Positions 5,781-47,546 are shown, counted from the first letter of the stretch. The stretch: 64,000 nucleotides of DNA from a bacterium (GCA_031409775.1 JANNXY010000042.1:165-64164); one strand, 5' to 3'. Numbers and translations are program-made. The notes: generated from the letters alone by a model not told the origin.

Positions 5781-5840
5781 TTAATGCTTGATTATCTTTC
5801 CACTTGGATGTGGACTAGAATTAGCACCTAACTCAATAGG

Positions 5841-6284
5841 TTGCTCACAGGTCGTTGGGCTAGTTCCCTCGCTGTAGTCTGGATATCGTATGAGGCTTTC
5901 AATGCTTTGCTTATTATACCACACTATGATAATGTGCAAGCAGAAAAACATCGACTTATGCACCATAATACATTATTCCACTTTGGTGAAGCTGCAATTT
6001 CACATGCAGAATTATGTGCTGAAACACTTCTCAATGCCGATCCAGATAAAATGCTTCACAGTTTGGATAAGGATGGTTTCTACTACATGCTCTATGGAGA
6101 TGAACTTAAGTATTTGATAATCTTTAGCAGATTCTTTGATCCTGAAGCGAATTTTGTTACGCTGCGCGGTTGCCCTACTGGTCCTGGGAGACAAGCTGGT
6201 AGGGACGAGATAATGAGACATATTGGGTCAGCAAAGAGATTTGCTACGGAGGTACTGGAAAGATGCAAAGAGCTCAGAGCCTAG
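5841..6284 (+). CDS. hypothetical protein (uncertain ORF)
   Basis: 147 aa ORF with no recognisable motifs. It overlaps conflicting ORFs on both strands, so the coding status is unresolved. Confidence 0.25.
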   Translation: MLTGRWASSLAVVWISYEAFNALLIIPHYDNVQAEKHRLMHHNTLFHFGEAAISHAELCAETLLNADPDKMLHSLDKDGFYYMLYGDELKYLIIFSRFFDPEANFVTLRGCPTGPGRQAGRDEIMRHIGSAKRFATEVLERCKELRA

Positions 6285-9003: not shown

Positions 9004-10362
9004 TTAGTAATTATCTCGCAAGAAGCGAATCATTTCGCGGCTGTCGGCGTAGACGTCTTCAGAATTAAGTAAGATCACGACAATTGGACGTTTCTCACCC
9101 TGGACAGTTTCCTCATAGACTCCTATATATGTTTCCCCTGCTGCTGTGGTCTTGCCTATTTTACCCCCTAGAAAAGTACTATTTAAACCCGGAACGGTGT
9201 TGAAATTCTGCAGATCTGAATACAGAGGATCCCCATAGACACTCGTCGTGACTCGGCCAGCACTCAGGTTGAATACAAATCTGCGATTATTGAGAACGTA
9301 TTTAGCGAGAGCGTATAGATCCTGCGCAGATGATACATTGCCATCACCTCCACCATAGGGGTCGACGAATCTGGTGTCCTTCATATTGATAGCCTGAGCT
9401 TTCTTGTTCATGAGACCCACGAAATAGTTCTTGCCCATACTGTCGGCTATCACATTGGCGGCCTCGTTCGATGACTCCATGAGTAATGGAAATAATAGGT
9501 CATAGACGGTTATAACCTGACCCGACTTGAGCCGAGGTTTAGAAGTGGTCGCCATCGAGTAATCATTTACCGTGAGGTTCTTCTCTATGTGGATATACTC
9601 AGTTGCAACTAGAGCTGTCATTATCTTGGTAATAGAAGCAACAGGGACCTGGTCACTTATACCCTGACTAGCCAGTATCGTATCGTTCTTCAGATCTGCT
9701 AATAAGTATTTCTCTGCTGTGACATGGGGCGTCTGACCGATATATTTAAATGAATCATTCTGCACATCTGACTCGTATACAATTACAGGCATACCGACTT
9801 TGGTTAGGTTGTACACGATCTCTGCATCTGCTGTAGATAGTCGTATACATCCACCAGAATAAGTCGAAGAAACCTCTGTACCATCCTCATAATACGGCCA
9901 TCCATGTATAAAGAAGTTGCCCTGGAATATCATACTCCATGGCTGGTATACATGTCCGATCGAGGATAAGTGATTCTTTTTCTTGGCTTCTATTTTATAA
10001 ATACCTGCAGGGGTTTCCCACCATGAGCCCTCTTTACCTTTGGATTTTATCTCGATTTCTTTGTTCAATTCTCCATCTATATATATGCGAAGTTTCATGG
10101 CTGTGAGGTCTGCTTCTACGAAGCTTTTCTTGTCTACCGTCAGAGAATTCTTGACCCTGCTAAAGTAGTTGATATCCGACATAGCAGCTGTAGAGCCATA
10201 GATAAAATCATTATCGTTCAATTTATCTGGCTCGGGGAAATTGTAGCCTTCTAGCGGGTTCTGGTACAAGAATCCCGCAACACCTATTACGATAATCAAT
10301 ATACCGGTTATGACCCCTCCCCATACTTTCTTATTACTTTTTTTTGAATTATTTGTTTCCAT
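9004..10362 (-). CDS. bifunctional L,D-transpeptidase (YkuD) / D-alanyl-D-alanine carboxypeptidase (peptidase S11) fusion protein
   Basis: N-terminal TM anchor. YkuD catalytic motif HGW...SGGCIRL. C-terminal PBP5-like motifs in order: SITK (SxxK), SSNEAANV (SxN) and GKIGKTT (KTG-like). Confidence 0.7.
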   Translation of the reverse strand: METNNSKKSNKKVWGGVITGILIIVIGVAGFLYQNPLEGYNFPEPDKLNDNDFIYGSTAAMSDINYFSRVKNSLTVDKKSFVEADLTAMKLRIYIDGELNKEIEIKSKGKEGSWWETPAGIYKIEAKKKNHLSSIGHVYQPWSMIFQGNFFIHGWPYYEDGTEVSSTYSGGCIRLSTADAEIVYNLTKVGMPVIVYESDVQNDSFKYIGQTPHVTAEKYLLADLKNDTILASQGISDQVPVASITKIMTALVATEYIHIEKNLTVNDYSMATTSKPRLKSGQVITVYDLLFPLLMESSNEAANVIADSMGKNYFVGLMNKKAQAINMKDTRFVDPYGGGDGNVSSAQDLYALAKYVLNNRRFVFNLSAGRVTTSVYGDPLYSDLQNFNTVPGLNSTFLGGKIGKTTAAGETYIGVYEETVQGEKRPIVVILLNSEDVYADSREMIRFLRDNY

Positions 10363-16578: not shown

Positions 16579-17571
16579 CTATTCCATCGGCTTTGTGTCT
16601 ATCGGATAGCGCTTGGGATCGATAGTACGAGTAAAGCAATTAGCGCCTTCGGTATGCTCGAAGCTCTCGTTCATTGGGAAACCGCCAATACTCGTATCCA
16701 TATCCATCGCAGGATAAGGATAGGTCATTGAACCACCATAGCTTCCACGACCCTTGTTATCGTCCGTAGCTAGGGCGAAATCAGCACAGATTTCAAACGC
16801 TGGCGAGGTCGAGGCTACTTTATTATATCCATATACCTGACCTGATTCTGGATCTAGGAACTGATCTTTTACTTCTGGATATAGTGGATCGATAAGCTCA
16901 TCTAGAGTCTCTGGGACTGCACCTGTGCGCTGATAATGGCTCACAACCTGCCACTGAATGTTCTGCAAATTCTCAATACGAGTCTGATCATCACGAAGCT
17001 TGCGCTGATCCTGTGGCAATCCAACGATAAATAATCCGCCAATTATACTTACGATAACTACCACCGAAGTAACTGTGGTAAAAATTCTTAATAAATTAGG
17101 TTTCGAAAAATATATTTGTCGTAGGTCGCGAACTGTGTACCAAAACACCGCAAATGCCACAATGAAAACTACTGCAAATTTAGAGACAAATCTGCTTGAA
17201 ATCTCGCCAGAAAGGAAAGTGTTGATAAGGCTTATGAGGTCGCCTGCAACCACTACCCCCGCAACAAACAAAGTAAAATAAGAAAGCCATCTGCGTACCG
17301 ACCAATCTCGAAGTGCCTCGTTGCTTTTTAATTCCTTGAACATGAGTTTGGACAGATAGATAAGTATAGGAAATGCAACGACGAGTGTTGACAGCGCGAA
17401 CCTGATCGGAGAATAAAAAGGGTTATAGTCTCCAGCCAGTCTGTCTGGGAATACATAGTCGATCACTCCGAACGCGAACACTAGGAAGCTAGTGACAGAT
17501 GTATACAGGGCAGCGACAATTCCAATCTGCAAGAAGAAATCTTTTGCTTTTGAGTTGTGATTTGTAGACAT
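16579..17571 (-). CDS. integral membrane protein with C-terminal extracytoplasmic domain (hypothetical)
   Basis: 330 aa; several N-terminal TM helices then a soluble C-terminal region; no specific family recognised. Confidence 0.4.
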   Translation of the reverse strand: MSTNHNSKAKDFFLQIGIVAALYTSVTSFLVFAFGVIDYVFPDRLAGDYNPFYSPIRFALSTLVVAFPILIYLSKLMFKELKSNEALRDWSVRRWLSYFTLFVAGVVVAGDLISLINTFLSGEISSRFVSKFAVVFIVAFAVFWYTVRDLRQIYFSKPNLLRIFTTVTSVVVIVSIIGGLFIVGLPQDQRKLRDDQTRIENLQNIQWQVVSHYQRTGAVPETLDELIDPLYPEVKDQFLDPESGQVYGYNKVASTSPAFEICADFALATDDNKGRGSYGGSMTYPYPAMDMDTSIGGFPMNESFEHTEGANCFTRTIDPKRYPIDTKPME

Positions 17572-35932: not shown

Positions 35933-37063
35933 CTATTTATTAAACATTGCAACATATTGGTACAATTCAAAAGATCGGTTTCTTGAAAAACCCGTTTTTT
36001 CTTTTAAGATCCCTTTTTCAACAAATTCCTCAATAAGTCGATTTGCTGTTATAAACACAACACCTAGTTCATGCGCTATCTGATTCACACCCATTATTGG
36101 CTGTGAAAAAAGTCTAAGTAATAATTTTTGTCCCAGTGGAGCACGCCTGCCCATTGTCATTATTTTTTTCTCATATTCTTGTCGTAGAGTTACTATATTT
36201 TCCAAAGTCTCTTTGCCTTTCGTTGCAGTACTGATAACCCCAGATAGAAAAAACTTTATCCATTGCTCTACACTATTTGATGAACGTACTAGAGTCAATG
36301 AGTCATAATATGAACCCTTATTTTTTGCAAAAAAGTCAGAGAGATAAAGCGTTGGACGTTGTAATACCCCACCTTCTACTAATTGAAGTGTGACCAACAA
36401 TCGTCCAATTCTCCCGTTACCATCCAAGAAAGGATGGATGGTTTCAAACTGATAGTGACTTATAGCCATTTTTAATAATATTGGTATTTCTAGTTGCTTG
36501 TTATGCCAAAATTTTTGCAGATCGGAAAGCAATTCTTCCACTTCAGTGGGGTGCGGTGGGATAAAGAAGGCATCTTTCAGACTCGATCCTCCAATCCAAT
36601 TTTGACTTTTTCTAATTTCGCCAGGGGTTCTGTGTTCACCGCGAACACCGGATAAAAGAATTTTGTGAGCAGATTTCAACAATCTCATAGACAAAGGTAG
36701 ATTCTCGAGTTCTTTTATCGAATGGTTTATTGCTTGGATATAGTTTTGCACCTCTCTCCAGTCATCTCTACGCTCTGGTTCAATATCTTCTTTCGGGGAG
36801 AGTATTTCATCTATCCCAGTCTTAGTTCCTTCAATACGACTAGATGTTATTGCCTCTTTGGCAATATGCATCTTGATAAAATAGTCCACATCAGGAACGA
36901 GTGTTGAGTAAGCATTGAGTTCACCTAAAAGCCTCATTGCCTCGGAAAGCAAAATATCAATCTTTTTATCTTCCCATTCAAATGGTTTATTAATCAGAAA
37001 AGGACTAAAGCACTTATATTCCAACTGCTGCTTATATATACCCGCTTTAAATGTTTGCTTCAT
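35933..37063 (-). CDS. Fic/DOC family protein (putative AMPylator) with N-terminal inhibitory motif and C-terminal winged helix
   Basis: Fic active-site motif [13 protein letters not shown]-terminal SxxxEG ([11 protein letters not shown]) inhibitory-helix motif, i.e. a class II Fic layout. Confidence 0.85.
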
Positions 37064-38793: not shown

Positions 38794-39813
38794 CTAAAAA
38801 GCCAGTGCCGCTGCGGACTCAAGTATCTGCTTTACCGATGAGCTCTGGTCGAGCAGGTACGATCGCATCTCTAGAATCATCCTCTGGTTCCTAATAGGTT
38901 TGTTGGTGTTACGCATAGCTGTGATTATCTGGTCCAATAAATCAACTGCACGGTCCTTGCCAAATTTCTCTGATTTGATTCCTTCGACTATTTTACTACT
39001 TTCTAGCAATAGCTCTTTTACGCTCAGTTTTATATCATTTATTTTATTACTTACTTTCGAATCAAATTTGGATTCCAGTCGCGATCTAAGAGTTGGTAGA
39101 ATACGTTCAGGGAATTGAGTAACGAAGAAAAAAACAGTATCTCGCGGCGGTTCCTCTACTACTTTGAGCAATGTGTTCTGTGCTTCTGCGTTCATGGTTA
39201 TAAACTCGAGCATCACTATCCTTTTCTTGTTTCCAAATGTGTGTCTAGATAAAGCATCTTTGACTTCGCGAGCTGTATCTATCTTGAAGTTGGTTTCTCT
39301 GTATACAAGCAACTCTAAATTACCTTTATCCTCTTTCGATAAAATCCCTTCTGCTATTTCTTTGGTCAAGAGGTATGCGTGATGCATCGGGGGTATTTTA
39401 GCATTTCCCCTCCTTATCCTAGGAGGGGTGGTCGTAGACCGGGGAGGTAGATTCTCTTGAATTTTACTTAAAACTCCACTTAGATTATTTCTTACTTCAC
39501 TATTCCAAAATCTTATAACGCTCAAATTTAATTCTTTGAAAAATTCTGTTCTTACTTTATCATATTCTTGATCTTCACTATGCGAATTCCCGTCGACTTC
39601 AATAATCAAACTCTTTTCACTGCAATAGAAATCAACTACATATCTGCCTATCCCCGTCTGCCTTCTGAATTTATAACCCAAGCCATTTCCTTTCAATTTT
39701 GACCAAAGTAAAACTTCCTCTTTGCTCATATTATGTCGGAGAAATCTTCTTTTTTCCTTTGAATTCGCTAGATTAAATATTCTATCAGTATTCATAGAAG
39801 AATTATACACCAC
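38794..39813 (-). CDS. holB: in-frame fusion ORF: DUF559 (Vsr-like endonuclease fold) domain + DNA polymerase III delta' (HolB)-like C-terminal part
   Basis: aa ~7-120 match DUF559 (KFRRQTGIGRYVVDFYCSEKSLIIEVDGNSHS...VIRFWNSEV). aa 143-339 match clamp-loader delta' (MHHAYLL..., LLKVVEEPP, LRSRL). The listed GTG start lies inside the inverted repeat, so the likely DUF559 start is the ATG at 39795 and the likely native holB start is the ATG at 39387. Confidence 0.65.
   Translation of the reverse strand: MVYNSSMNTDRIFNLANSKEKRRFLRHNMSKEEVLLWSKLKGNGLGYKFRRQTGIGRYVVDFYCSEKSLIIEVDGNSHSEDQEYDKVRTEFFKELNLSVIRFWNSEVRNNLSGVLSKIQENLPPRSTTTPPRIRRGNAKIPPMHHAYLLTKEIAEGILSKEDKGNLELLVYRETNFKIDTAREVKDALSRHTFGNKKRIVMLEFITMNAEAQNTLLKVVEEPPRDTVFFFVTQFPERILPTLRSRLESKFDSKVSNKINDIKLSVKELLLESSKIVEGIKSEKFGKDRAVDLLDQIITAMRNTNKPIRNQRMILEMRSYLLDQSSSVKQILESAAALAF
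39403..39447. repeat. right inverted repeat of DUF559 cassette (also encodes PPRSTTTPPRIRRGNAK linker)
   Basis: See the mobile_element entry; contains palindrome CCCCTCC-N8-GGAGGGG. Confidence 0.6.
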
Positions 39814-40914: not shown

Positions 40915-42795
40915 ATGTATTTAATCCGAGTAATACCAATATCTAGAGGAATTGACAAGGACTCGCTTACATATTTCAGCCTCAGAGACTGCCCTGTGGG
41001 ACACATCGCAAGCATCCAGATAAGGAGTAGAATGGCCCCAGCTATAGTGTATTCAAGCGAGAAAGTGGAGATGGAGAAGAGCTCTATCAAGCAACTCCCG
41101 TATGAGTTGAAAAAGATTTCCGATGCTGGGAGCGGTAGTCAGCCATTTTTTAACCAAGCATTTATGAAGGCTGTAGAAAATATCGCAACACATCATGCAT
41201 CATCTGCAGGTGCGGTGATCGAAGCTCTCACACCATCTAACGTACTCTCTGAGCATGTATCAATCATATCAAAGGTGGCAGAAATTCCAGTCGACAATCA
41301 CCCCACAGAGAACCTGATGTTCCAAGCCGACGACGAGACTCGACTTGCACATTACAAAAGCATAATAAGAGAAGAATTCGCCAAGAAAAATTCTGTATTT
41401 ATACTTGTACCGACAGTTCACGAAGCCAACTTTATCAAAGAAGGTTTAGAAAAAGGTATCGAATCATATACCTATGTAGCTCACGGTGGTCTGTCCAAGA
41501 AAGCTTCTGTACATCTATGGAACGAAGTGATAAGCAATTCACACCCTGTATTGGTTATAGGAACTGCGATATTTCTATCTATACCGCGAAGATGGAATAC
41601 GATCATAGTAGAGCGCGAGAGTTCTAGGCATTACAAAATGTCACAGAGACCGTTCCTAGATGTTCGACGTGTCGCAGAGAAGCTGGCCCTGCATTCGAAA
41701 GCGACATGTATATTTGCAGACGTGATGCTACGCGCAGAAACTCTCTGTAGGTACGAAGATGGCGAGATACACGAAGTGAGTAAACCCCAATGGAGGTCTA
41801 TGTCGAATTCCAAGATAAACCTAGTAGACCTCCGTAGTCTCAAATTCTCTATACTAAGTAATGAGCTGAGGCAACTGATTTCTGACAACAAATCCAACGG
41901 TCGGAGGCTGTTTATCTATGTATCACGTAGGGGTAATTCTCCACAGATTATATGTCGGGACTGTGGCAACACGGTTATGTGTAACAGGTGTAGTGCACCC
42001 GTAGTGCTGCATACATCAGCTGCCAAAAGTGATCGATACTTCCTCTGCCATAGTTGTGGCGAGCGACGTACCGCAGATGAGTCATGCACTCACTGCGAGA
42101 GCTGGCACCTACAGGGCTACGGTGTGGGCATAGAATCTGCCCAAGAACTCCTGAGTAAAGAATTTCCAAATATCAAAATATTTAGAATCGACTCCGACAC
42201 TACACCCACAGACAAGAAAGCGACAGCTGTAATAGATGAATTCTATACCAACCCCGGTAGCATACTACTAGGCACTGACCGTGCGCTGTACTACCTCAAG
42301 GAACCGATCGAGAATGTCGCTATAGCATCACTCGACTCTCTGTTCTCGCTCCCCGACTTCCGAATCCAAGAAAAGATATTCCACACCATTCTACAGCTAC
42401 GATCGCTCTCGTCACATACATTCATCGCACAGACGCGCTACACCGACAATCCGTTGTGGAACTATGCGCTCAAAGGAAACCTCATCGACTTCTACCGCTC
42501 AGAAAAGGACTCTCGCAAGCAGTTCCACTATCCACCGTACAAGACACTTATAAAGATCACCTACACAGGTACACCAGCATTAGTCCGCAAGGAAATGTCG
42601 AACCTCAAATCAATATTGGAACCGTATGTTGTAAACATCTTCCCTGCGTTTATCGAGAACAAGAAAGGTAAATTTGTAATGCATGGACTACTCCGCCTCG
42701 ACAAGCGTGACTGGCCGAACCTGGACCTCCATGACAAACTCCGCTCCCTCCCGCCAAGCTTTGCCGTAAATGTCGATCCCGAGAATTTGCTTTAG
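40915..42795 (+). CDS. priA: primosomal protein N' (PriA) homolog with degenerate helicase ATPase motifs
   Basis: PriA-like 3'-DNA-binding N-terminus and the characteristic CxxC-rich Zn-binding insert (CRDCGNTVMCNRCSAPVV...CHSCGERRTADESCTHCES) are present. No GxGKT Walker A was found. The DEEH box position reads IIVERESSRHYK. Confidence 0.65.
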   Translation: MYLIRVIPISRGIDKDSLTYFSLRDCPVGHIASIQIRSRMAPAIVYSSEKVEMEKSSIKQLPYELKKISDAGSGSQPFFNQAFMKAVENIATHHASSAGAVIEALTPSNVLSEHVSIISKVAEIPVDNHPTENLMFQADDETRLAHYKSIIREEFAKKNSVFILVPTVHEANFIKEGLEKGIESYTYVAHGGLSKKASVHLWNEVISNSHPVLVIGTAIFLSIPRRWNTIIVERESSRHYKMSQRPFLDVRRVAEKLALHSKATCIFADVMLRAETLCRYEDGEIHEVSKPQWRSMSNSKINLVDLRSLKFSILSNELRQLISDNKSNGRRLFIYVSRRGNSPQIICRDCGNTVMCNRCSAPVVLHTSAAKSDRYFLCHSCGERRTADESCTHCESWHLQGYGVGIESAQELLSKEFPNIKIFRIDSDTTPTDKKATAVIDEFYTNPGSILLGTDRALYYLKEPIENVAIASLDSLFSLPDFRIQEKIFHTILQLRSLSSHTFIAQTRYTDNPLWNYALKGNLIDFYRSEKDSRKQFHYPPYKTLIKITYTGTPALVRKEMSNLKSILEPYVVNIFPAFIENKKGKFVMHGLLRLDKRDWPNLDLHDKLRSLPPSFAVNVDPENLL

Positions 42796-43166
42796 TTTGC
42801 ACCCAGATAATCTTTGATTCTTTGTTTACTCTCATTTTCAGATTCACCTTTGAAGTAAATTTCAATAAATTCAACGGTAGTTGTCGCAGGATAAAAGGCA
42901 TAGATGATGCGAATACCACTTTTTGCCCCACGACCCTTGAGCGACTTACAGGCAAACTTCTTTAGTTTGCAAATTTTTATTTTATCTGTACAAAAGTTGG
43001 GAATCAAGAAAATGGAATTAATATATTCCAAACCTTCATGGTAAGGCTCTATTGTTGCAATCTTGGCGAACTCTAAATCATCTGTAAGAGACCTAAACTT
43101 CTTTTGCAGAAACTTTAAATCCCTTTGGAATTCACTTGTTTCTCTATAAATAATCTTGATCGTCAT
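42792..43166 (-). CDS. RelE/ParE/HigB-superfamily toxin-like protein
   Basis: 124 aa; C-terminal KSGIRIIYAFYP...IEIYFKGESE resembles the RelE/HigB core (GxRxIY...I). Overlaps the upstream HTH-Panacea gene by 23 nt. Confidence 0.5.
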   Translation of the reverse strand: MTIKIIYRETSEFQRDLKFLQKKFRSLTDDLEFAKIATIEPYHEGLEYINSIFLIPNFCTDKIKICKLKKFACKSLKGRGAKSGIRIIYAFYPATTTVEFIEIYFKGESENESKQRIKDYLGAN

Positions 43167-43962
43167 AATTTCTTACAGAAGTTTTCTCAGTCCGATAAAA
43201 AACACCTTCATATTTAATTGGCTGATTTTCTTTGGTAACGATCCATGGGATATCCTCATGAGAGTAGTTGCTCAATTCTGTGGCATTTTTATTGCTTAAT
43301 CTCGCCAATACTTCATCGATGTGCTTTATTTCATTTGCACTGAGTACAGAGAGGTTAGCCTGCCTCTTTGGTAGGTATTTGGTCTGCCCATGTTGGAAAT
43401 AATTACTTTTTACGGTTTCTAGCTCGCCTTTGGACTCCATTGATTCTATGACCTTTTTGAACTCCACTGGAGTCGGGCCAAAATGATTCTTGATATATGT
43501 CGCACCAATGAGCTGTTCTTCGAACTTTTCGTAATAATCAAAGTCGATAAAGTAGAGAAGTTTGTACAGAACCGTCATCCCGACATTTGGCTTGCCACCA
43601 ACCCTTTCGAGTATATAAAGCAATACCTCTTTGAACTTCTTGATGTTTTTCTGCGGGACATCTATGCGCATTCCTATCGTTTCTTTTATTTCCTTTTCGT
43701 CCATTATTCTTATATCCAATTCGAAATTTTTTTTTCCAGAAATGAGGTTTTCAATTTTAATTTCGAAAATCTGTGCGATCTTTTGAGCTTGGGAAATAGT
43801 CAGCTCTTTCTTGCCTTTCTCCACCTCAATGTAGCTTGGGCGTGAAATACCAATCTTTTCAGCAATATAAGCCTGTGACAAATTTGCCTCGTTACGTAAT
43901 TCTTGTAGAAATTTATGTTTAATCATATCCAATATTATATACTCGCCATATTGATATGTCAA
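43144..43962 (-). CDS. XRE-family HTH + Panacea (DUF4065) domain antitoxin-like protein
   Basis: N-terminal HTH (LSQAYIAEKIGISRPSYIEVEKGKKELTISQAQKIAQIF). The central GMTVLYKLLYFIDFDYYEKFEEQLIGATYIKNHFGPTPVEF matches the DUF4065/Panacea KLxKLLYF...GxP...GPV pattern. Confidence 0.55.
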   Translation of the reverse strand: MTYQYGEYIILDMIKHKFLQELRNEANLSQAYIAEKIGISRPSYIEVEKGKKELTISQAQKIAQIFEIKIENLISGKKNFELDIRIMDEKEIKETIGMRIDVPQKNIKKFKEVLLYILERVGGKPNVGMTVLYKLLYFIDFDYYEKFEEQLIGATYIKNHFGPTPVEFKKVIESMESKGELETVKSNYFQHGQTKYLPKRQANLSVLSANEIKHIDEVLARLSNKNATELSNYSHEDIPWIVTKENQPIKYEGVFYRTEKTSVRNYDDQDYL

Positions 43963-44092
43963 TAATAGTTACAATAAAATTGTTAAAATAACTAACATAA
44001 TCTTGATTTTTAGCTCCCCGTACCCTATTACACAATCAAATATCTGTCAAATTCAGCTTTATTTTATTCCTCATTTATTGTATAAATACCCC

Positions 44093-44596
44093 ATGTCAAA
44101 GATAATTCAAAACGGTGATAAGGTGCTCCGCATGGAAGCAGAGTCAGTGGATCCCAAAATGTTTGGGAGCAAGAAGCTCCTCGCTATACTCAAGGATATG
44201 GCCAAGACTGCGAATGCCGAGCAGGACGCAGTGGCTATTGCTGCTCCACAGATCGGAGTGAGCCTGCGCATATTTGTGATTACTGACCGAGTTCGCGAGA
44301 TAATCAAGTCCCCCGACCTCCCACTAATTTATATAAATCCAACAATTATTAAGCAAAGCAAGGACAAGAAAGCAATGGAAGAAGGCTGCCTCTCGGTGCG
44401 CTGGCTCTATGGCAAAGTCCGCAGGTCCTCCCGCGTGACGATCGAAGCATTCGACGAGAGTGGCAACAAATTCACCCGTGGTGCCTCTGGCCTCCTCGCC
44501 CAGATATTCCAGCACGAGACCGATCACCTCGACGGCATCCTATTTATCGATACCGCCAAGAATTTAAGGGAGATGCTGCCAGAGAATCAGGATTAG
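44093..44596 (+). CDS. def: peptide deformylase
   Basis: EGCLS and QHETDHLDG (HExxH) motifs. Start reassigned to MSKIIQNGDKV; the N-terminal extension from 44003 is rejected. Confidence 0.9.
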   Translation: MSKIIQNGDKVLRMEAESVDPKMFGSKKLLAILKDMAKTANAEQDAVAIAAPQIGVSLRIFVITDRVREIIKSPDLPLIYINPTIIKQSKDKKAMEEGCLSVRWLYGKVRRSSRVTIEAFDESGNKFTRGASGLLAQIFQHETDHLDGILFIDTAKNLREMLPENQD

Positions 44597-44759: not shown

Positions 44760-45467
44760 ATGAAAAAATCAAAAACTTTTAAATTATTATCTCGCGCCGA
44801 GCGTGATGAAATAGAAATACTACTAGAAAAAGAATATTCTGGGAGATCAATTGCCAAAGCACTCTGTCGTTCTCCGAATACTATCTCGTATGAGATTAGG
44901 AAAAACGGTGGCAAGAAAAAGTACAAGGCTCAAAATGCTCACCAATATGCACAGACCAGAAGAAAAGATACCAAAACACAGTGGAAAAAGATTGAACACA
45001 ATAGCACTCTCAAAACCTTCATCATTGAGAAATTGAAATTACATTGGAATTCCGATGAAATCGCTGGATACATGAGGCGAAAAAAGCTAAAGTTTTATGC
45101 CTCAAAAACAGCTATCTATGAGTGGCTTAGGAGTGAGTACGGACAACAATATTGCAAGCATCTCTACTCTGGTCGATACAGGGTCAAACGCCACAAGACG
45201 AGCAAGAAGAAACGGGAGATGATTCCTAATCGAGTGAGCATTGAGAAGCGTCCAAAGGCCATTCTGAAGCGAGGTAGGTTTGGTCACTGTGAAGCTGATA
45301 CTGTAGTCTCAGCCAAAGATGGCTCTGGAGGAGTCTCAGTGTTTCAAGAAAGAAAATCTCGCTTGTATCAGGCAAAAAAGGCGCTAGGTATGAGTGCCAA
45401 AGAACATGTGATTAATCAAGAACCCCGCGGCAGAGCCGTCCCCTCGCAAAGCCTCGGCGGGGTATGA
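44760..45467 (+). pseudogene. IS30-family transposase remnant (N-terminal HTH and start of DDE domain only), interrupted by IS200-type insertion
   Basis: N-terminal HTH region and GHCEADTV (IS30 GHWEGDxI equivalent) followed by ERKSRLY. Homology ends at ~45430, where the IS200 right end begins. No C-terminal DDE/E part is found downstream. Confidence 0.65.
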
Positions 45468-45995
45468 ATTGATGCATGGTCTAGTGCCAAAGGGTGAGCT
45501 GTACTGATTCGACCGTCTTTCCCTGGTTTTCTATGTATTTCTTTACTATATCCCAGTTTCCACGCTCGCCTACTGTAGCGAGATAGTAACCATCACTCCA
45601 GAACTCTCCTCCCCACAGATCTTTACGCAGTTCAGGAAATCGCCTGAATAGTTGTTTGGCTGTAATGCTTTTGAACATCGTCACTACTTCGATACCTGAA
45701 TACTTCGGGTGATAAGAGCAGAGTATGTGAATATGGTTAATATCGCATCCTAGGTTTTCAAAATCGATTTCGTATCTTTCACCGATTTCCTTGGCGATTT
45801 CTAATACGGCGAGCTCCACTGGTTTGTCTAACAGAGCTTTGCGGTATTTGACGGGAAAGACTATGTGATAGTGGGTATTGTATGCGCAGTGATTGCTTTT
45901 CTTGACCATGCATCTAGTATATCTGAAAACCAAGGGTTTTCAGACTTTCCTTAGCAGAAACCCCGCCCTAGAAGGGACGGGGAATGGGGGAGATT
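45425..45995 (-). mobile_element. IS200-type element (tnpA only) with subterminal GC-rich hairpins
   Basis: Left-end hairpin CCCCGCCCTAGAAGGGACGGGG at ~45948-45975 and an imperfect palindrome at ~45436-45470 flank tnpA. The element is inserted into the IS30 transposase gene. Boundaries are approximate. Confidence 0.5.
45481..45933 (-). CDS. tnpA: IS200/IS605-family Y1 (HUH) transposase TnpA
   Basis: 150 aa; HUH motif HIHIL (INHIHILCSY) and the conserved catalytic Tyr region (WSDGYYLATVG) typical of IS200 TnpA. Confidence 0.85.
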   Translation of the reverse strand: MVFRYTRCMVKKSNHCAYNTHYHIVFPVKYRKALLDKPVELAVLEIAKEIGERYEIDFENLGCDINHIHILCSYHPKYSGIEVVTMFKSITAKQLFRRFPELRKDLWGGEFWSDGYYLATVGERGNWDIVKKYIENQGKTVESVQLTLWH

Positions 45996-46013: not shown

Positions 46014-46685
46014 TTATAATTGTAATTTTTTTGAGTCTGAAATACTCTCTGATAATTCATTAAATGTATACTGGTAGATTTTCCAATCAGAATAATCAAT
46101 TATTTCTTCTGGTTCATCGAATGTAAGCCAGTCGTCTTTAATATTCCCTGAACAATGCTTAAGTTTATTTATATATCTGCCAACAGCGCTGTCTCTATTC
46201 TCTTCATTTTTCTTATAATCTAGACCTATTTTTCCTAAAGTTATTTTTAAGTCAATTAAAGTTTTAGAGGGGATAAATAATTCTGCCTTTCCATTATTAA
46301 TTATATGGTCAGTTATCTCTCGATACCTTAACGCCTCCTCTTTTTGAGATGTTTCTTCATATTTTACACCCAATTCCACTAATTTACTGCAATATAATTT
46401 ATATATCTTCCATTGATTGAAAGACAAATCATTCGTTACCTCATCGTAGGTTTTTTGGATGCGTTGCGAGTATACTGCCACAAGAAAACAAATTGATACC
46501 AAAATAAATCCCTCAGAGGGTGATAACTCATCCTGCATAATTATGAAACCAATAAATATAATCAAAAAAGGATGTTTAACGATAAATTTTTTAATAGAAT
46601 ATAATACTTTACGCATGTTACTTATTATTAAGATTTTGATTACAAACGGATAAAGCAATACTAAGTGCCATAAAAAAACCTCCAC
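46014..46685 (-). CDS. hypothetical membrane-anchored protein (223 aa) in very AT-rich DNA
   Basis: Two N-terminal TM helices then a charged Lys/Glu-rich cytoplasmic domain. Local GC is far below the rest of the window; no homology recognised. Confidence 0.4.
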   Translation of the reverse strand: MEVFLWHLVLLYPFVIKILIISNMRKVLYSIKKFIVKHPFLIIFIGFIIMQDELSPSEGFILVSICFLVAVYSQRIQKTYDEVTNDLSFNQWKIYKLYCSKLVELGVKYEETSQKEEALRYREITDHIINNGKAELFIPSKTLIDLKITLGKIGLDYKKNEENRDSAVGRYINKLKHCSGNIKDDWLTFDEPEEIIDYSDWKIYQYTFNELSESISDSKKLQL

Positions 46686-46803
46686 CTATTACTGCTGGCA
46701 ATGAATCTAATCCCATCTCGCTTGAACTCAATACTCCAAGTAATACTGCAAAGAAACCTATTATTAGTGATGCTAAACCTACAAGATTAGTTAATGTTTT
46801 CAT
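46618..46803 (-). CDS. small hydrophobic protein (61 aa)
   Basis: Two predicted TM helices (LVGLASLIIGFFAVLLGVL; GGGFFMALSIALSV); immediately upstream of, and overlapping, the 223-aa gene. Confidence 0.3.
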   Translation of the reverse strand: MKTLTNLVGLASLIIGFFAVLLGVLSSSEMGLDSLPAVIGGGFFMALSIALSVCNQNLNNK

Positions 46804-46916
46804 ATATATTAAGCATACTCTTATAATGTTGATAATTCAACTACTATTATGTGATTAAATCTATAGAGATTACTGTTGATAAATATACATATTTTAATGA
46901 GTTTAAGCATAGGTGA

Positions 46917-47330
46917 GTGACTGATAACTGTCAAAAACCCAACTTTCTAGCTGGTTCCAACTTTCACTTACAATGTCCACACACGAAACCGCTTCGGCGG
47001 TTTTTATTGTGTGTGGGCCCAAGCAAAGCCTGGGTTGGCTTTGCGTCAGGACTCGAACGGCGGAGCGGGACCCAGATTAGCAAATCTGGGAGCGAGCCGG
47101 TGCCCAGACAAATCATTCGCGACGGCGAAAGATTTAGTCGAGGGAGAGATTCCTGTAGGGTCCACTGAACAGAAAAAACACCCACCGCTGGGTGTTTTCT
47201 CGTGTACGTTGAACGCGGAGCCATATTTTCAAGTACGGAAAATGGCGAGCCGGGGTCGAGGAATTCGTCAGCTGACGAGCTAGCGAATATCCGTGACCAC
47301 AAAATATTTGCAACAATTTCTGTATAAAGT
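46917..47330. ncRNA. GC-rich, highly structured non-coding region with two intrinsic-terminator-like hairpins (unclassified structured RNA candidate)
   Basis: Overlapping open frames on both strands and no credible protein. Nested hairpin CACACAC[AACCGC-TTCG-GCGGTT]TTTTT...GTGTGTG at 46977-47016. Further stems GCAAAGCC/GGCTTTGC and CCCAGAT/ATCTGGG. Hairpin AACACCCA-CCGC-TGGGTGTT (47177-47196) has an A6/T6 run on its minus-strand side. Perfect palindrome CGTCAGCTGACG at ~47258. Confidence 0.35.
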
Positions 47331-47348
47331 TACTATGAAGTTAGAAAT

Positions 47349-47546
47349 ATGCCCGAAGATCCTACTGATCCCAAGAAAATTAGCAATGCATCACTTAGAG
47401 TAAAGATGAGGGGCTGGAGCCCAGAGAAACGCGAAACGTACTTCCGCTTGGTAGCTGTGGTTCAAGTGCACTCCTTTGCGATTTCAGGAGTTAAGCTCGA
47501 CAAGGAGAAAACGCTGCAGAAAATCCGCCGAACATCTCAGAACTGA
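47349..47546 (+). CDS. hypothetical small basic protein (65 aa)
   Basis: Short ORF with no motifs, followed by a hairpin with a T-run at ~47530-47560. Confidence 0.2.
   Translation: MPEDPTDPKKISNASLRVKMRGWSPEKRETYFRLVAVVQVHSFAISGVKLDKEKTLQKIRRTSQN

Follow-up and report, generated by a model that had tools for sequence, protein, structure and literature searches.

A Rare Pair of Unannotated Membrane Protein Genes beside a Conserved Landmark Element in an Accessory Patch of a Patescibacteria Genome

Introduction

The tiny genomes of Patescibacteria are commonly described as poor in defence and toxin-antitoxin systems. The DNA examined here, a stretch of 64,000 nucleotides referred to as the window, comes from an ultra-small Patescibacteria/CPR bacterium whose UvrC is at most 65% identical to that of the best MAGs in the genome collection. 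Within it, the first-pass annotation had singled out two very AT-rich open reading frames for membrane proteins and had likened them to a small defence or abortive-infection cargo. The locus raises the questions of whether these frames are genes, how they came to lie where they do, and what their products might do. The features that bear on the answers are listed in Table 1.

Table 1. Coordinates of the gene pair, its neighbours in the window, and related features in metagenome loci
Feature	Location	Strand	Basis or remark
Large gene, 200-aa protein	window 46014..46616	-	public gene call and homologue alignment
Small gene, 61-aa protein, two hydrophobic helices	window 46618..46803	-	ORF scan and hydropathy; MKTLTNLVGLASLIIGFFAVLLGVL...IGGGFFMALSIALSV...
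Promoter-like TTGACA-17 nt-TATGCT, 5' of small gene	window 46906..46934	-	consensus match only
Conserved ~52-nt landmark (GTGGACATTGTAAGTGAAAGTTGGAACCAGCTAGAAAGTTGGGTTTTTGA)	window 46929..46980	-	nhmmer E 3e-16; single copy in window
Hairpin-rich, GC-richer block, ~8 near-perfect stem-loops	window 46981..47345		between Ddl-like gene and landmark
IS200/IS605-family Y1 transposase, 150 aa, flanking hairpins	window 45481..45933	-	Y1_Tnp E 1.4e-35, positions 2-121/121
IS30-like transposase, truncated, 235 aa	window 44760..45467	+	HTH_38 only, catalytic domain missing
Peptide deformylase gene def	window 44090-44596	+	between IS30 fragment and PanA pair
HTH-Panacea (PanA-type) antitoxin gene	window 43144..43962	-	SocA_Panacea 4.6e-18, HTH_3 1.4e-12
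124-aa partner of PanA-type antitoxin	window 42792-43166		overlaps antitoxin gene; no family match
Landmark copy	L019 26-78		
Landmark copy	L025 3639-3690		
Landmark copy	L027 1038-990		
Landmark copies	L029 1693-1642 and 2844-2794		
Landmark copy	L031 932-983		
Landmark copy	L032 1490-1440		
Landmark copy	L033 1290-1341		
tmRNA gene, 3' end	L020 4542-4668	-	cut by contig end

Results and Discussion

Reading Frames and Selection

An ORF scan recovers the two co-directional, minus-strand frames at 46014-46803 that had been described previously. The 223-aa length then given to the larger protein, and the gene overlap that followed from it, are products of choosing the longest possible ORF, which opens at GTG 46685; the real start is ATG 46616, giving 200 aa. 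Because P0001, the 200-aa public gene call for the exact window sequence, starts at this methionine, and all three homologues of the large protein align from it, the 61-aa and 200-aa genes are adjacent without overlapping. A single base separates them in a TAA-C-ATG junction. This arrangement is compatible with translational coupling of the pair, and the two genes are probably co-transcribed. Promoter-like sites in the region, some of them on the plus strand (46576-46605 and 46799-46827), occur at chance level, with seven found as compared to 6.0±2.6 expected.

The large protein belongs to a small family. When 1.84 billion representatives of ~15 billion proteins are scanned exhaustively with HMMER, three members are found in all, namely the window protein, P0002 (49% identity), and P0003 (34%). 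A profile search of a 90%-clustered collection adds a fourth, P0004, at 32% identity, so that the family numbers four members in ~15 billion proteins, with a patchy distribution. Their end-to-end alignment contains 39 invariant columns, and the copies of the gene in the metagenome loci L019 and L020 differ with a dN/dS of 0.14 at a dS of 1.56. Taken together, the low dN/dS and the conserved full-length family establish the large gene as real and as subject to purifying selection. The sole homologue of the 61-aa protein is P0006, at 72% identity. Comparison of the small gene with its copy in locus L021 gives a dN/dS of 0.43 over 31 substitutions, with the ORF intact and without a frameshift. 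The small gene thus also appears to be real, on weaker evidence than that for the large gene.

These data bear on whether the frames could have arisen by chance in AT-rich non-coding or decaying DNA. The region is AT-rich, a clear Shine-Dalgarno motif is missing before both start codons, and a single homologue with a dN/dS of 0.43 is weak coding evidence for the 61-aa protein. However, the large ORF is full length in four contigs at 32-49% identity, AlphaFold2 reaches a pLDDT of ~86-95 for residues 71-140 of its product from just three sequences, and the small ORF has stayed open in L021 despite its substitutions. Chance is largely refuted for the large gene and, for the pair, is barely credible.

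Protein Families and Predicted Structure

Both genes encode membrane proteins. Hydropathy analysis and AlphaFold2 bear out the two N-terminal transmembrane (TM) helices and the charged C-terminal domain reported earlier for the larger protein. Its N-terminus is positively charged (net +5 in the first 15 residues), and its hydrophobic helices, at ~11-29 and ~34-51 by hydropathy, are linked through the acidic loop QDELSPSEG. The positive-inside rule would place both termini in the cytoplasm. The C-terminal 148 residues are charged and all-helical, with 15% K+R and 18% D+E. The AlphaFold2 model, built from three sequences, has a mean pLDDT of 70, and its best-predicted part (residues 71-140) is a helical-hairpin core. 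The smaller protein is, as described before, a two-helix hydrophobic peptide by hydropathy, with hydrophobic stretches at ~3-28 and ~35-55, the second of which is glycine-rich.

Searches of Pfam, NCBIfam, PHROG, PADLOC, and PDB sequence profiles give no significant match to either protein or its homologues, in agreement with the earlier view that no family can be recognised. In PADLOC-DB v2, no family matches the 200-aa and 61-aa proteins at E values up to 0.1, and none matches any of the four large-family members at E values up to 1. The searches by tblastn against phages (50,697 GenBank phage records) and plasmids reveal no relatives, the protein-family scans of metagenome contigs and IMG/VR return nothing, and a DNA motif of the small gene is not found in IMG/VR. 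A LemA-like identity (N-terminal TM helix plus helical bundle, ~190 aa) was considered for the large family and rejected, with no Pfam matches among its four members at E values up to 5. Fold searches return generic coiled-coil matches and no specific fold for either protein. Both protein families are unannotated and very rare. The label of strict ORFans is nevertheless too strong, given three homologues (32-49%) for the large protein and one (72%) for the small.

Composition and Genomic Setting

The GC content of 46014-46900 is 0.29, the lowest among all 887-nt segments of the window (mean 0.430, sd 0.031), as the first-pass annotation had observed. The foreign composition claimed for these genes is also present at synonymous sites. 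Relative to the 48 window ORFs of at least 150 aa (GC3 0.451±0.061), the large gene has a GC3 of 0.264 (z -3.0) and the small gene one of 0.161 (z -4.7). Because GC3 is also low, the low GC content is not merely an amino-acid effect of Lys/Ile/Asn-rich proteins. Contigs bearing homologues have GC contents of 0.30-0.39. The low GC and GC3 are compatible with recent acquisition from an AT-richer donor.

A comparison across genomes, which had been suggested as a check, gives a result in the same direction. The pair is not found at the uvrC loci of 11 relatives (49-65% UvrC identity) within the DNA searched per locus, a comparison in which some contigs stop a few kb beyond uvrC and the relatives are too remote to settle presence or absence strictly. 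The uvrC/Ddl-like neighbourhood itself is kept in nine of the 11. The presence and synteny that would mark a core or housekeeping membrane protein are seen at none of these 11 loci at 49-65% UvrC identity.

The pair lies in a patch that consists, in order, of the PanA antitoxin and its 124-aa partner, def, the IS30-like fragment, IS200, the gene pair, and the hairpin block. Core genes flank this patch on both sides: Ddl-like, uvrC, uvrA, a FIST-domain gene, a two-component system, and uvrB to the right, and a helicase-like gene, mreB, holB, frr, and rseP to the left of 42.8 kb. IS200 borders the pair on its downstream side, with a hairpin at 45982-45961 beside it. An independent Logan contig of the same sequence stops at the start of IS200, 48 nt beyond the 200-aa gene, which is the break expected from a multi-copy IS in an assembly. 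The neighbours had been called transposase remnants and a toxin-antitoxin pair. The first term suits the IS30-like gene, which is truncated to HTH_38, but IS200 looks full length. The HTH-Panacea pair exists, but it lies ~2 kb off, beyond IS200, the IS30 fragment, and def. Membership of the 61-aa/200-aa pair in a PanA-PanT system was considered and rejected, as the only Panacea gene is this distant one, with its own 124-aa partner. From composition, setting, and distribution, we conclude that the pair is very probably accessory, horizontally acquired membrane cargo.

Other features of the window were recorded along the way. The def gene has an unusually high GC3 of 0.615 (z +2.7) and may itself be an acquired copy. 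A Fic/DOC protein (Fic_N + Fic) encoded at 35933-37063 (-) has the second-lowest GC3 in the window, 0.31, and is likely accessory. The gene at 38794-39813 (-) joins an N-terminal DUF559 endonuclease-like region to a DNA polymerase III delta-prime domain (DNA_pol3_delta2), which is either an unusual fusion or a merger of two genes by the ORF caller. The Logan annotation calls as a gene a 65-aa ORF at 47349-47546 (+), which lies between the hairpin block and the Ddl-like gene and has no NCBIfam match. The sole Rfam match in the window is a SAM riboswitch (RF00162) at 5789-5888 (-), with 44.5 bits, just over the gathering score. ARAGORN finds no tRNA or tmRNA genes across the 64 kb. On a related Parcubacteria contig, L007, a LOOT RNA (RF03000, 70 bits) is located at 17188-17304 (-).

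Mosaic Structure of Homologous Loci

The two genes do not travel together. DNA homology between the window and L021 begins ~55 nt upstream of the small-gene ATG and ends at its stop codon; the ORF that comes next in L021, across a TAA-T-ATG junction, is a different one of 50 aa. In L019 and L020, the large gene lies 6 nt after an unrelated gene for a 44-aa tail-anchored peptide (MNEEI.EEIREIK.RIKQIEKETSAILWALGAATGI...), which combines a charged N-terminal helix with a C-terminal TM helix. On the contig of P0002 (JGI 3300071358), where the neighbours encode 134-aa, 310-aa, and 83-aa proteins, the large gene is preceded by the gene for the 310-aa protein. A small membrane peptide gene followed by the large gene is found in three of the four loci, with peptides that are analogous, not homologous, and the 61-aa protein has no similarity to the 44-aa ORF or to a 62-aa ORF in L020.

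Identity between L019 and L020 is 93% (dS 0.2) from the 44-aa gene into the large gene as far as codon ~12 and falls to ~72% (dS 1.56) in the remainder of the large gene; beyond it, the two loci are unrelated. The high identity of L019 790-990 to L020 3170-3370 indicates either that the loci recombined recently or that the 44-aa region is under an added constraint, for example from an overlapping RNA. By these alignments, the small and large genes are inherited independently, as modules swapped between mosaic, recombining loci. The earlier description of an effector with a partner is not backed by this comparison, given that the pairing is not conserved across L019, L020, L021, and the P0002 contig.

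Genes for 44-aa, 203-aa, and 62-aa (two-helix) membrane proteins form a cluster in L020, and ~400 nt separate this cluster from a tmRNA gene at its 3' end. A 79-aa ORF, GIY-YIG-like by eye, lies between the tmRNA and this cluster. The 3' end of the tmRNA gene is a classic integration site. The cluster thus bears on the possibility that the pair was left behind by a prophage or integrative element. Under this reading, the 61-aa protein would serve as a holin of class-II type or as an exclusion factor, and the 200-aa protein would be a membrane protein with an accessory role. In its size and its two helices, the 61-aa protein is typical of small holins. Close to the tmRNA end, the L020 family member clusters with both a two-helix protein and the 44-aa tail-anchored peptide, the latter of XhlA-like design. 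The AT-rich composition is likewise akin to that of prophage accessory genes. However, the tmRNA 3' end has no second, directly repeated copy in L020; endolysin, integrase, and other phage genes are missing from the window patch and from L019-L021; and IMG/VR, the 50,697 GenBank phage records, and PHROGs hold no relative. This origin is unlikely, in our judgement.

Landmark and Hairpin-Rich Blocks

The gene pair starts ~125 nt downstream of a short conserved element, termed the landmark here (46980-46929). A 50-nt stretch of it aligns with the beginning of L019 at 78% identity, and a pattern derived from it, TTGGAACCAGYTANNNNNTTGGGTTTT, retrieves nine metagenome loci. Copies are present in L019 and L025-L033, with a diverged version in L020; the match in L028 is weak and covers only the 3' part of the element (nhmmer E 5.5e-05). 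In L029/L030, nhmmer detects two direct copies ~1.15 kb apart, and those of L029 bracket a one-gene segment. The full landmark pattern has no match in IMG/VR, and 17-mer and 19-mer landmark motifs give only chance matches there.

Upstream of the landmark, the loci carry unrelated genes, and what follows it varies. The first co-oriented genes past it encode a Panacea antitoxin and toxin in L020, L026, and L032, DUF4258 and DUF2283 proteins in L027, a RiboL-PSP HEPN protein and a 79-aa ORF in L031, an ORF without an assigned family in L025, the 44-aa and 199-aa proteins in L019, and the 61-aa and 200-aa proteins in the window. The slot is empty in L029B, L030, and L033, where nothing but a terminator and a convergent gene follows. 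No mutual similarity is found among the toxins associated with PanA in the window, L020, and L032, and in L020 PanA is paired with a 146-aa protein rather than with the large-family member. The 640-nt spacer of L019 was examined as a decayed PanA module and rejected, as it has no translated similarity. Homology between landmark copies tends to break at a shared point just past ...TTGGGTTTTTGA. From these sequence comparisons, the landmark appears to be the upstream border of a variable cargo slot. Because the pair lies directly 3' of the landmark, it sits in a slot that elsewhere holds cargo of toxin-antitoxin or abortive-infection type.

Several forms of the landmark can be considered. It may be a short ORF of 25-41 codons, (V/M)DL[VI]xE[SN]WNQLxSWVF..., which ends at a common stop position in L026, L031, and L032. 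Differences between copies are distributed over the codon positions as 129/75/118, and pN/pS is 0.5-0.76 in frame versus 0.84-3.0 out of frame, values that are suggestive, not decisive, for coding. The element also contains an imperfect inverted repeat; it may be a hairpin followed by a U-run, or it may be a recombination site. No Rfam family matches it.

On its other side, the landmark adjoins the hairpin-rich block, which had been annotated as a structured RNA. Its predicted folding is much stronger than that of shuffled sequences (z -7.1 on one strand and -6.6 on the other), but it belongs to no Rfam family even at E values up to 10 and contains no tRNA or tmRNA. Its last long hairpin, GGGCCCACACAC...GTGTGTGGAC, has counterparts in L029 with different stem sequences; the base of the hairpin, GGGYCCAC...GTGGAC, recurs, and the stems differ between the window and the two L029 copies. 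A similar hairpin-rich non-coding block occupies L019 176-800 (fold z -6.45), downstream of the landmark, whereas the window block is upstream of it. Homology of the window block to the L019 upstream region was rejected, as their global alignment is at noise level and only the ~50-nt landmark is common. In L002, the closest relative (65% UvrC identity), ~390 nt of GC-rich, apparently non-coding DNA lie between uvrC and the Ddl-like gene (9326-9711); this stretch matches no Rfam family, and similarity between it and the window block is not detectable. The hairpin blocks may be structured RNA or arrays of palindromic repeats.

Proposed Function

Because the slot holds toxin-antitoxin and HEPN modules on other Patescibacteria contigs, the pair most likely functions as a membrane-acting conflict module, whether for toxin/immunity, abortive infection, or exclusion. 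We hold this reading tentatively, on the strength of position and precedent. In PanA systems, small peptides with TM helices are experimentally verified membrane-depolarising toxins (PMC8832971). In the mechanism that we propose, a two-gene accessory cassette would have been acquired horizontally into the variable slot that starts at the landmark, and the slot would have been scrambled downstream by IS200 and the truncated IS30. The 61-aa two-helix peptide would insert into the cytoplasmic membrane and perturb it. The 200-aa protein, held by its helical-hairpin membrane anchor with the coiled-coil domain in the cytoplasm, would restrain the peptide, sense a trigger, or assist the peptide. The membrane topology, any toxicity, any interaction of the 61-aa and 200-aa proteins, and any role in defence are features that we infer for the pair.

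Several observations weigh against a conflict module. No family member has similarity to anything in PADLOC, PHROG, Pfam, or NCBIfam, and the 61-aa/200-aa pairing is not conserved. The slot argument is guilt by position drawn from ~10 short contigs, accessory regions in general are rich in toxin-antitoxin modules, and the nearest genomes are only 49-65% identical in UvrC. The earlier proposal of a defence or abortive-infection cargo thus retains circumstantial support, in that the landmark slot elsewhere carries PanA, DUF4258/DUF2283, and HEPN genes, but it gains none from matches to known defence or phage families.

The genes could instead encode lineage-restricted envelope proteins, involved in surface organisation or an episymbiotic lifestyle, with no conflict role, a chance location beside mobile DNA, and possibly as unrelated neighbours. 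Patescibacteria genomes contain many unannotated small membrane proteins, and the clear purifying selection on the large protein, the generic membrane-anchored coiled coil of its predicted fold, and the separate inheritance of the two genes all accord with such a role. It is harder to reconcile with a family of only four patchily distributed members in ~15 billion proteins, with GC3 values 3 to 4.7 sd below those of host genes, with toxin-antitoxin and HEPN cargo in the same slot elsewhere, and with homologous loci that are mosaic and recombining. We consider this explanation somewhat unlikely, if quite conceivable. Were it correct, the finding would be a routine island ORFan pair.

A broader and more doubtful suggestion can also be made. 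The landmark and hairpin blocks might together mark an undescribed cargo-capture or recombination hotspot of Patescibacteria that shuffles small conflict cassettes from genome to genome, in the manner of integron or pdif modules, with the pair as a new class of membrane-acting toxin/immunity or exclusion cassette; at present this is a long shot. Small membrane ORFans in accessory patches are of a familiar kind, and the landmark-defined slot is the more unusual observation. A landmark that predicts the sites of accessory conflict genes would give a simple handle for cataloguing the mobile gene pool of Patescibacteria, and would also aid the discovery of small membrane effectors that are invisible to profile searches. 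The 200-aa family is of interest in itself as a clean, conserved, and wholly unannotated membrane protein family.

Comparison with Known Systems

The small membrane-depolarising toxins, PanT proteins with TM helices and Hok/TisB type I toxins, are likewise short hydrophobic peptides in accessory DNA, and PanA modules fill the same landmark slot in L020, L026, and L032. The 61-aa protein falls within the description of type I toxins as hydrophobic peptides of ~70 aa or less with TM helices. The 44-aa ORF of L019 and L020 has the charged N-terminus and C-terminal TM design of PanT clusters T3 and T12 (PMC8832971). In contrast to these toxins, with which the pair has no sequence similarity, the 61-aa protein has as its partner a 200-aa membrane protein outside any recognised family, and no Panacea antitoxin gene adjoins the pair. 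The two plus-strand promoter-like sites at the pair would suit an antisense RNA antitoxin, but such sites are no more frequent in the region than expected by chance.

Small two-TM holins and superinfection-exclusion proteins also resemble the 61-aa protein in size and topology, being AT-rich and located by mobile DNA, and the protein lies within the range of small holins (two TM domains, ~60-90 aa). However, the neighbours of the pair are IS200 and the hairpin block, endolysin and phage genes are not nearby, and the phage collections give no matches. Assignment to a holin lysis cassette was rejected for this lack of an endolysin or phage context at the pair. The 200-aa protein may be compared with membrane-anchored helical-hairpin or coiled-coil proteins, such as the membrane-fusion proteins LipC and HlyD and the translocator IpaB, and further with the alpha-pore-forming AhlC, YaxB, and ClyA and with ESCRT-III/PspA, with fold matches that are only of the generic coiled-coil kind.

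The landmark itself can be compared with cassette-capture sites, namely integron attC arrays and the XerC/D pdif modules of Acinetobacter plasmids. Its sequence does not appear to fit the attC or dif consensus. The window patch contains no integron integrase and the window only one landmark copy, and, unlike in integron and pdif systems, no integrase or recombinase gene is seen in any landmark contig, all of which are short. The organisation is nevertheless similar in that attC and pdif sites, like the landmark, are short conserved sequences that precede varied, co-oriented small cargo rich in toxin-antitoxin genes.
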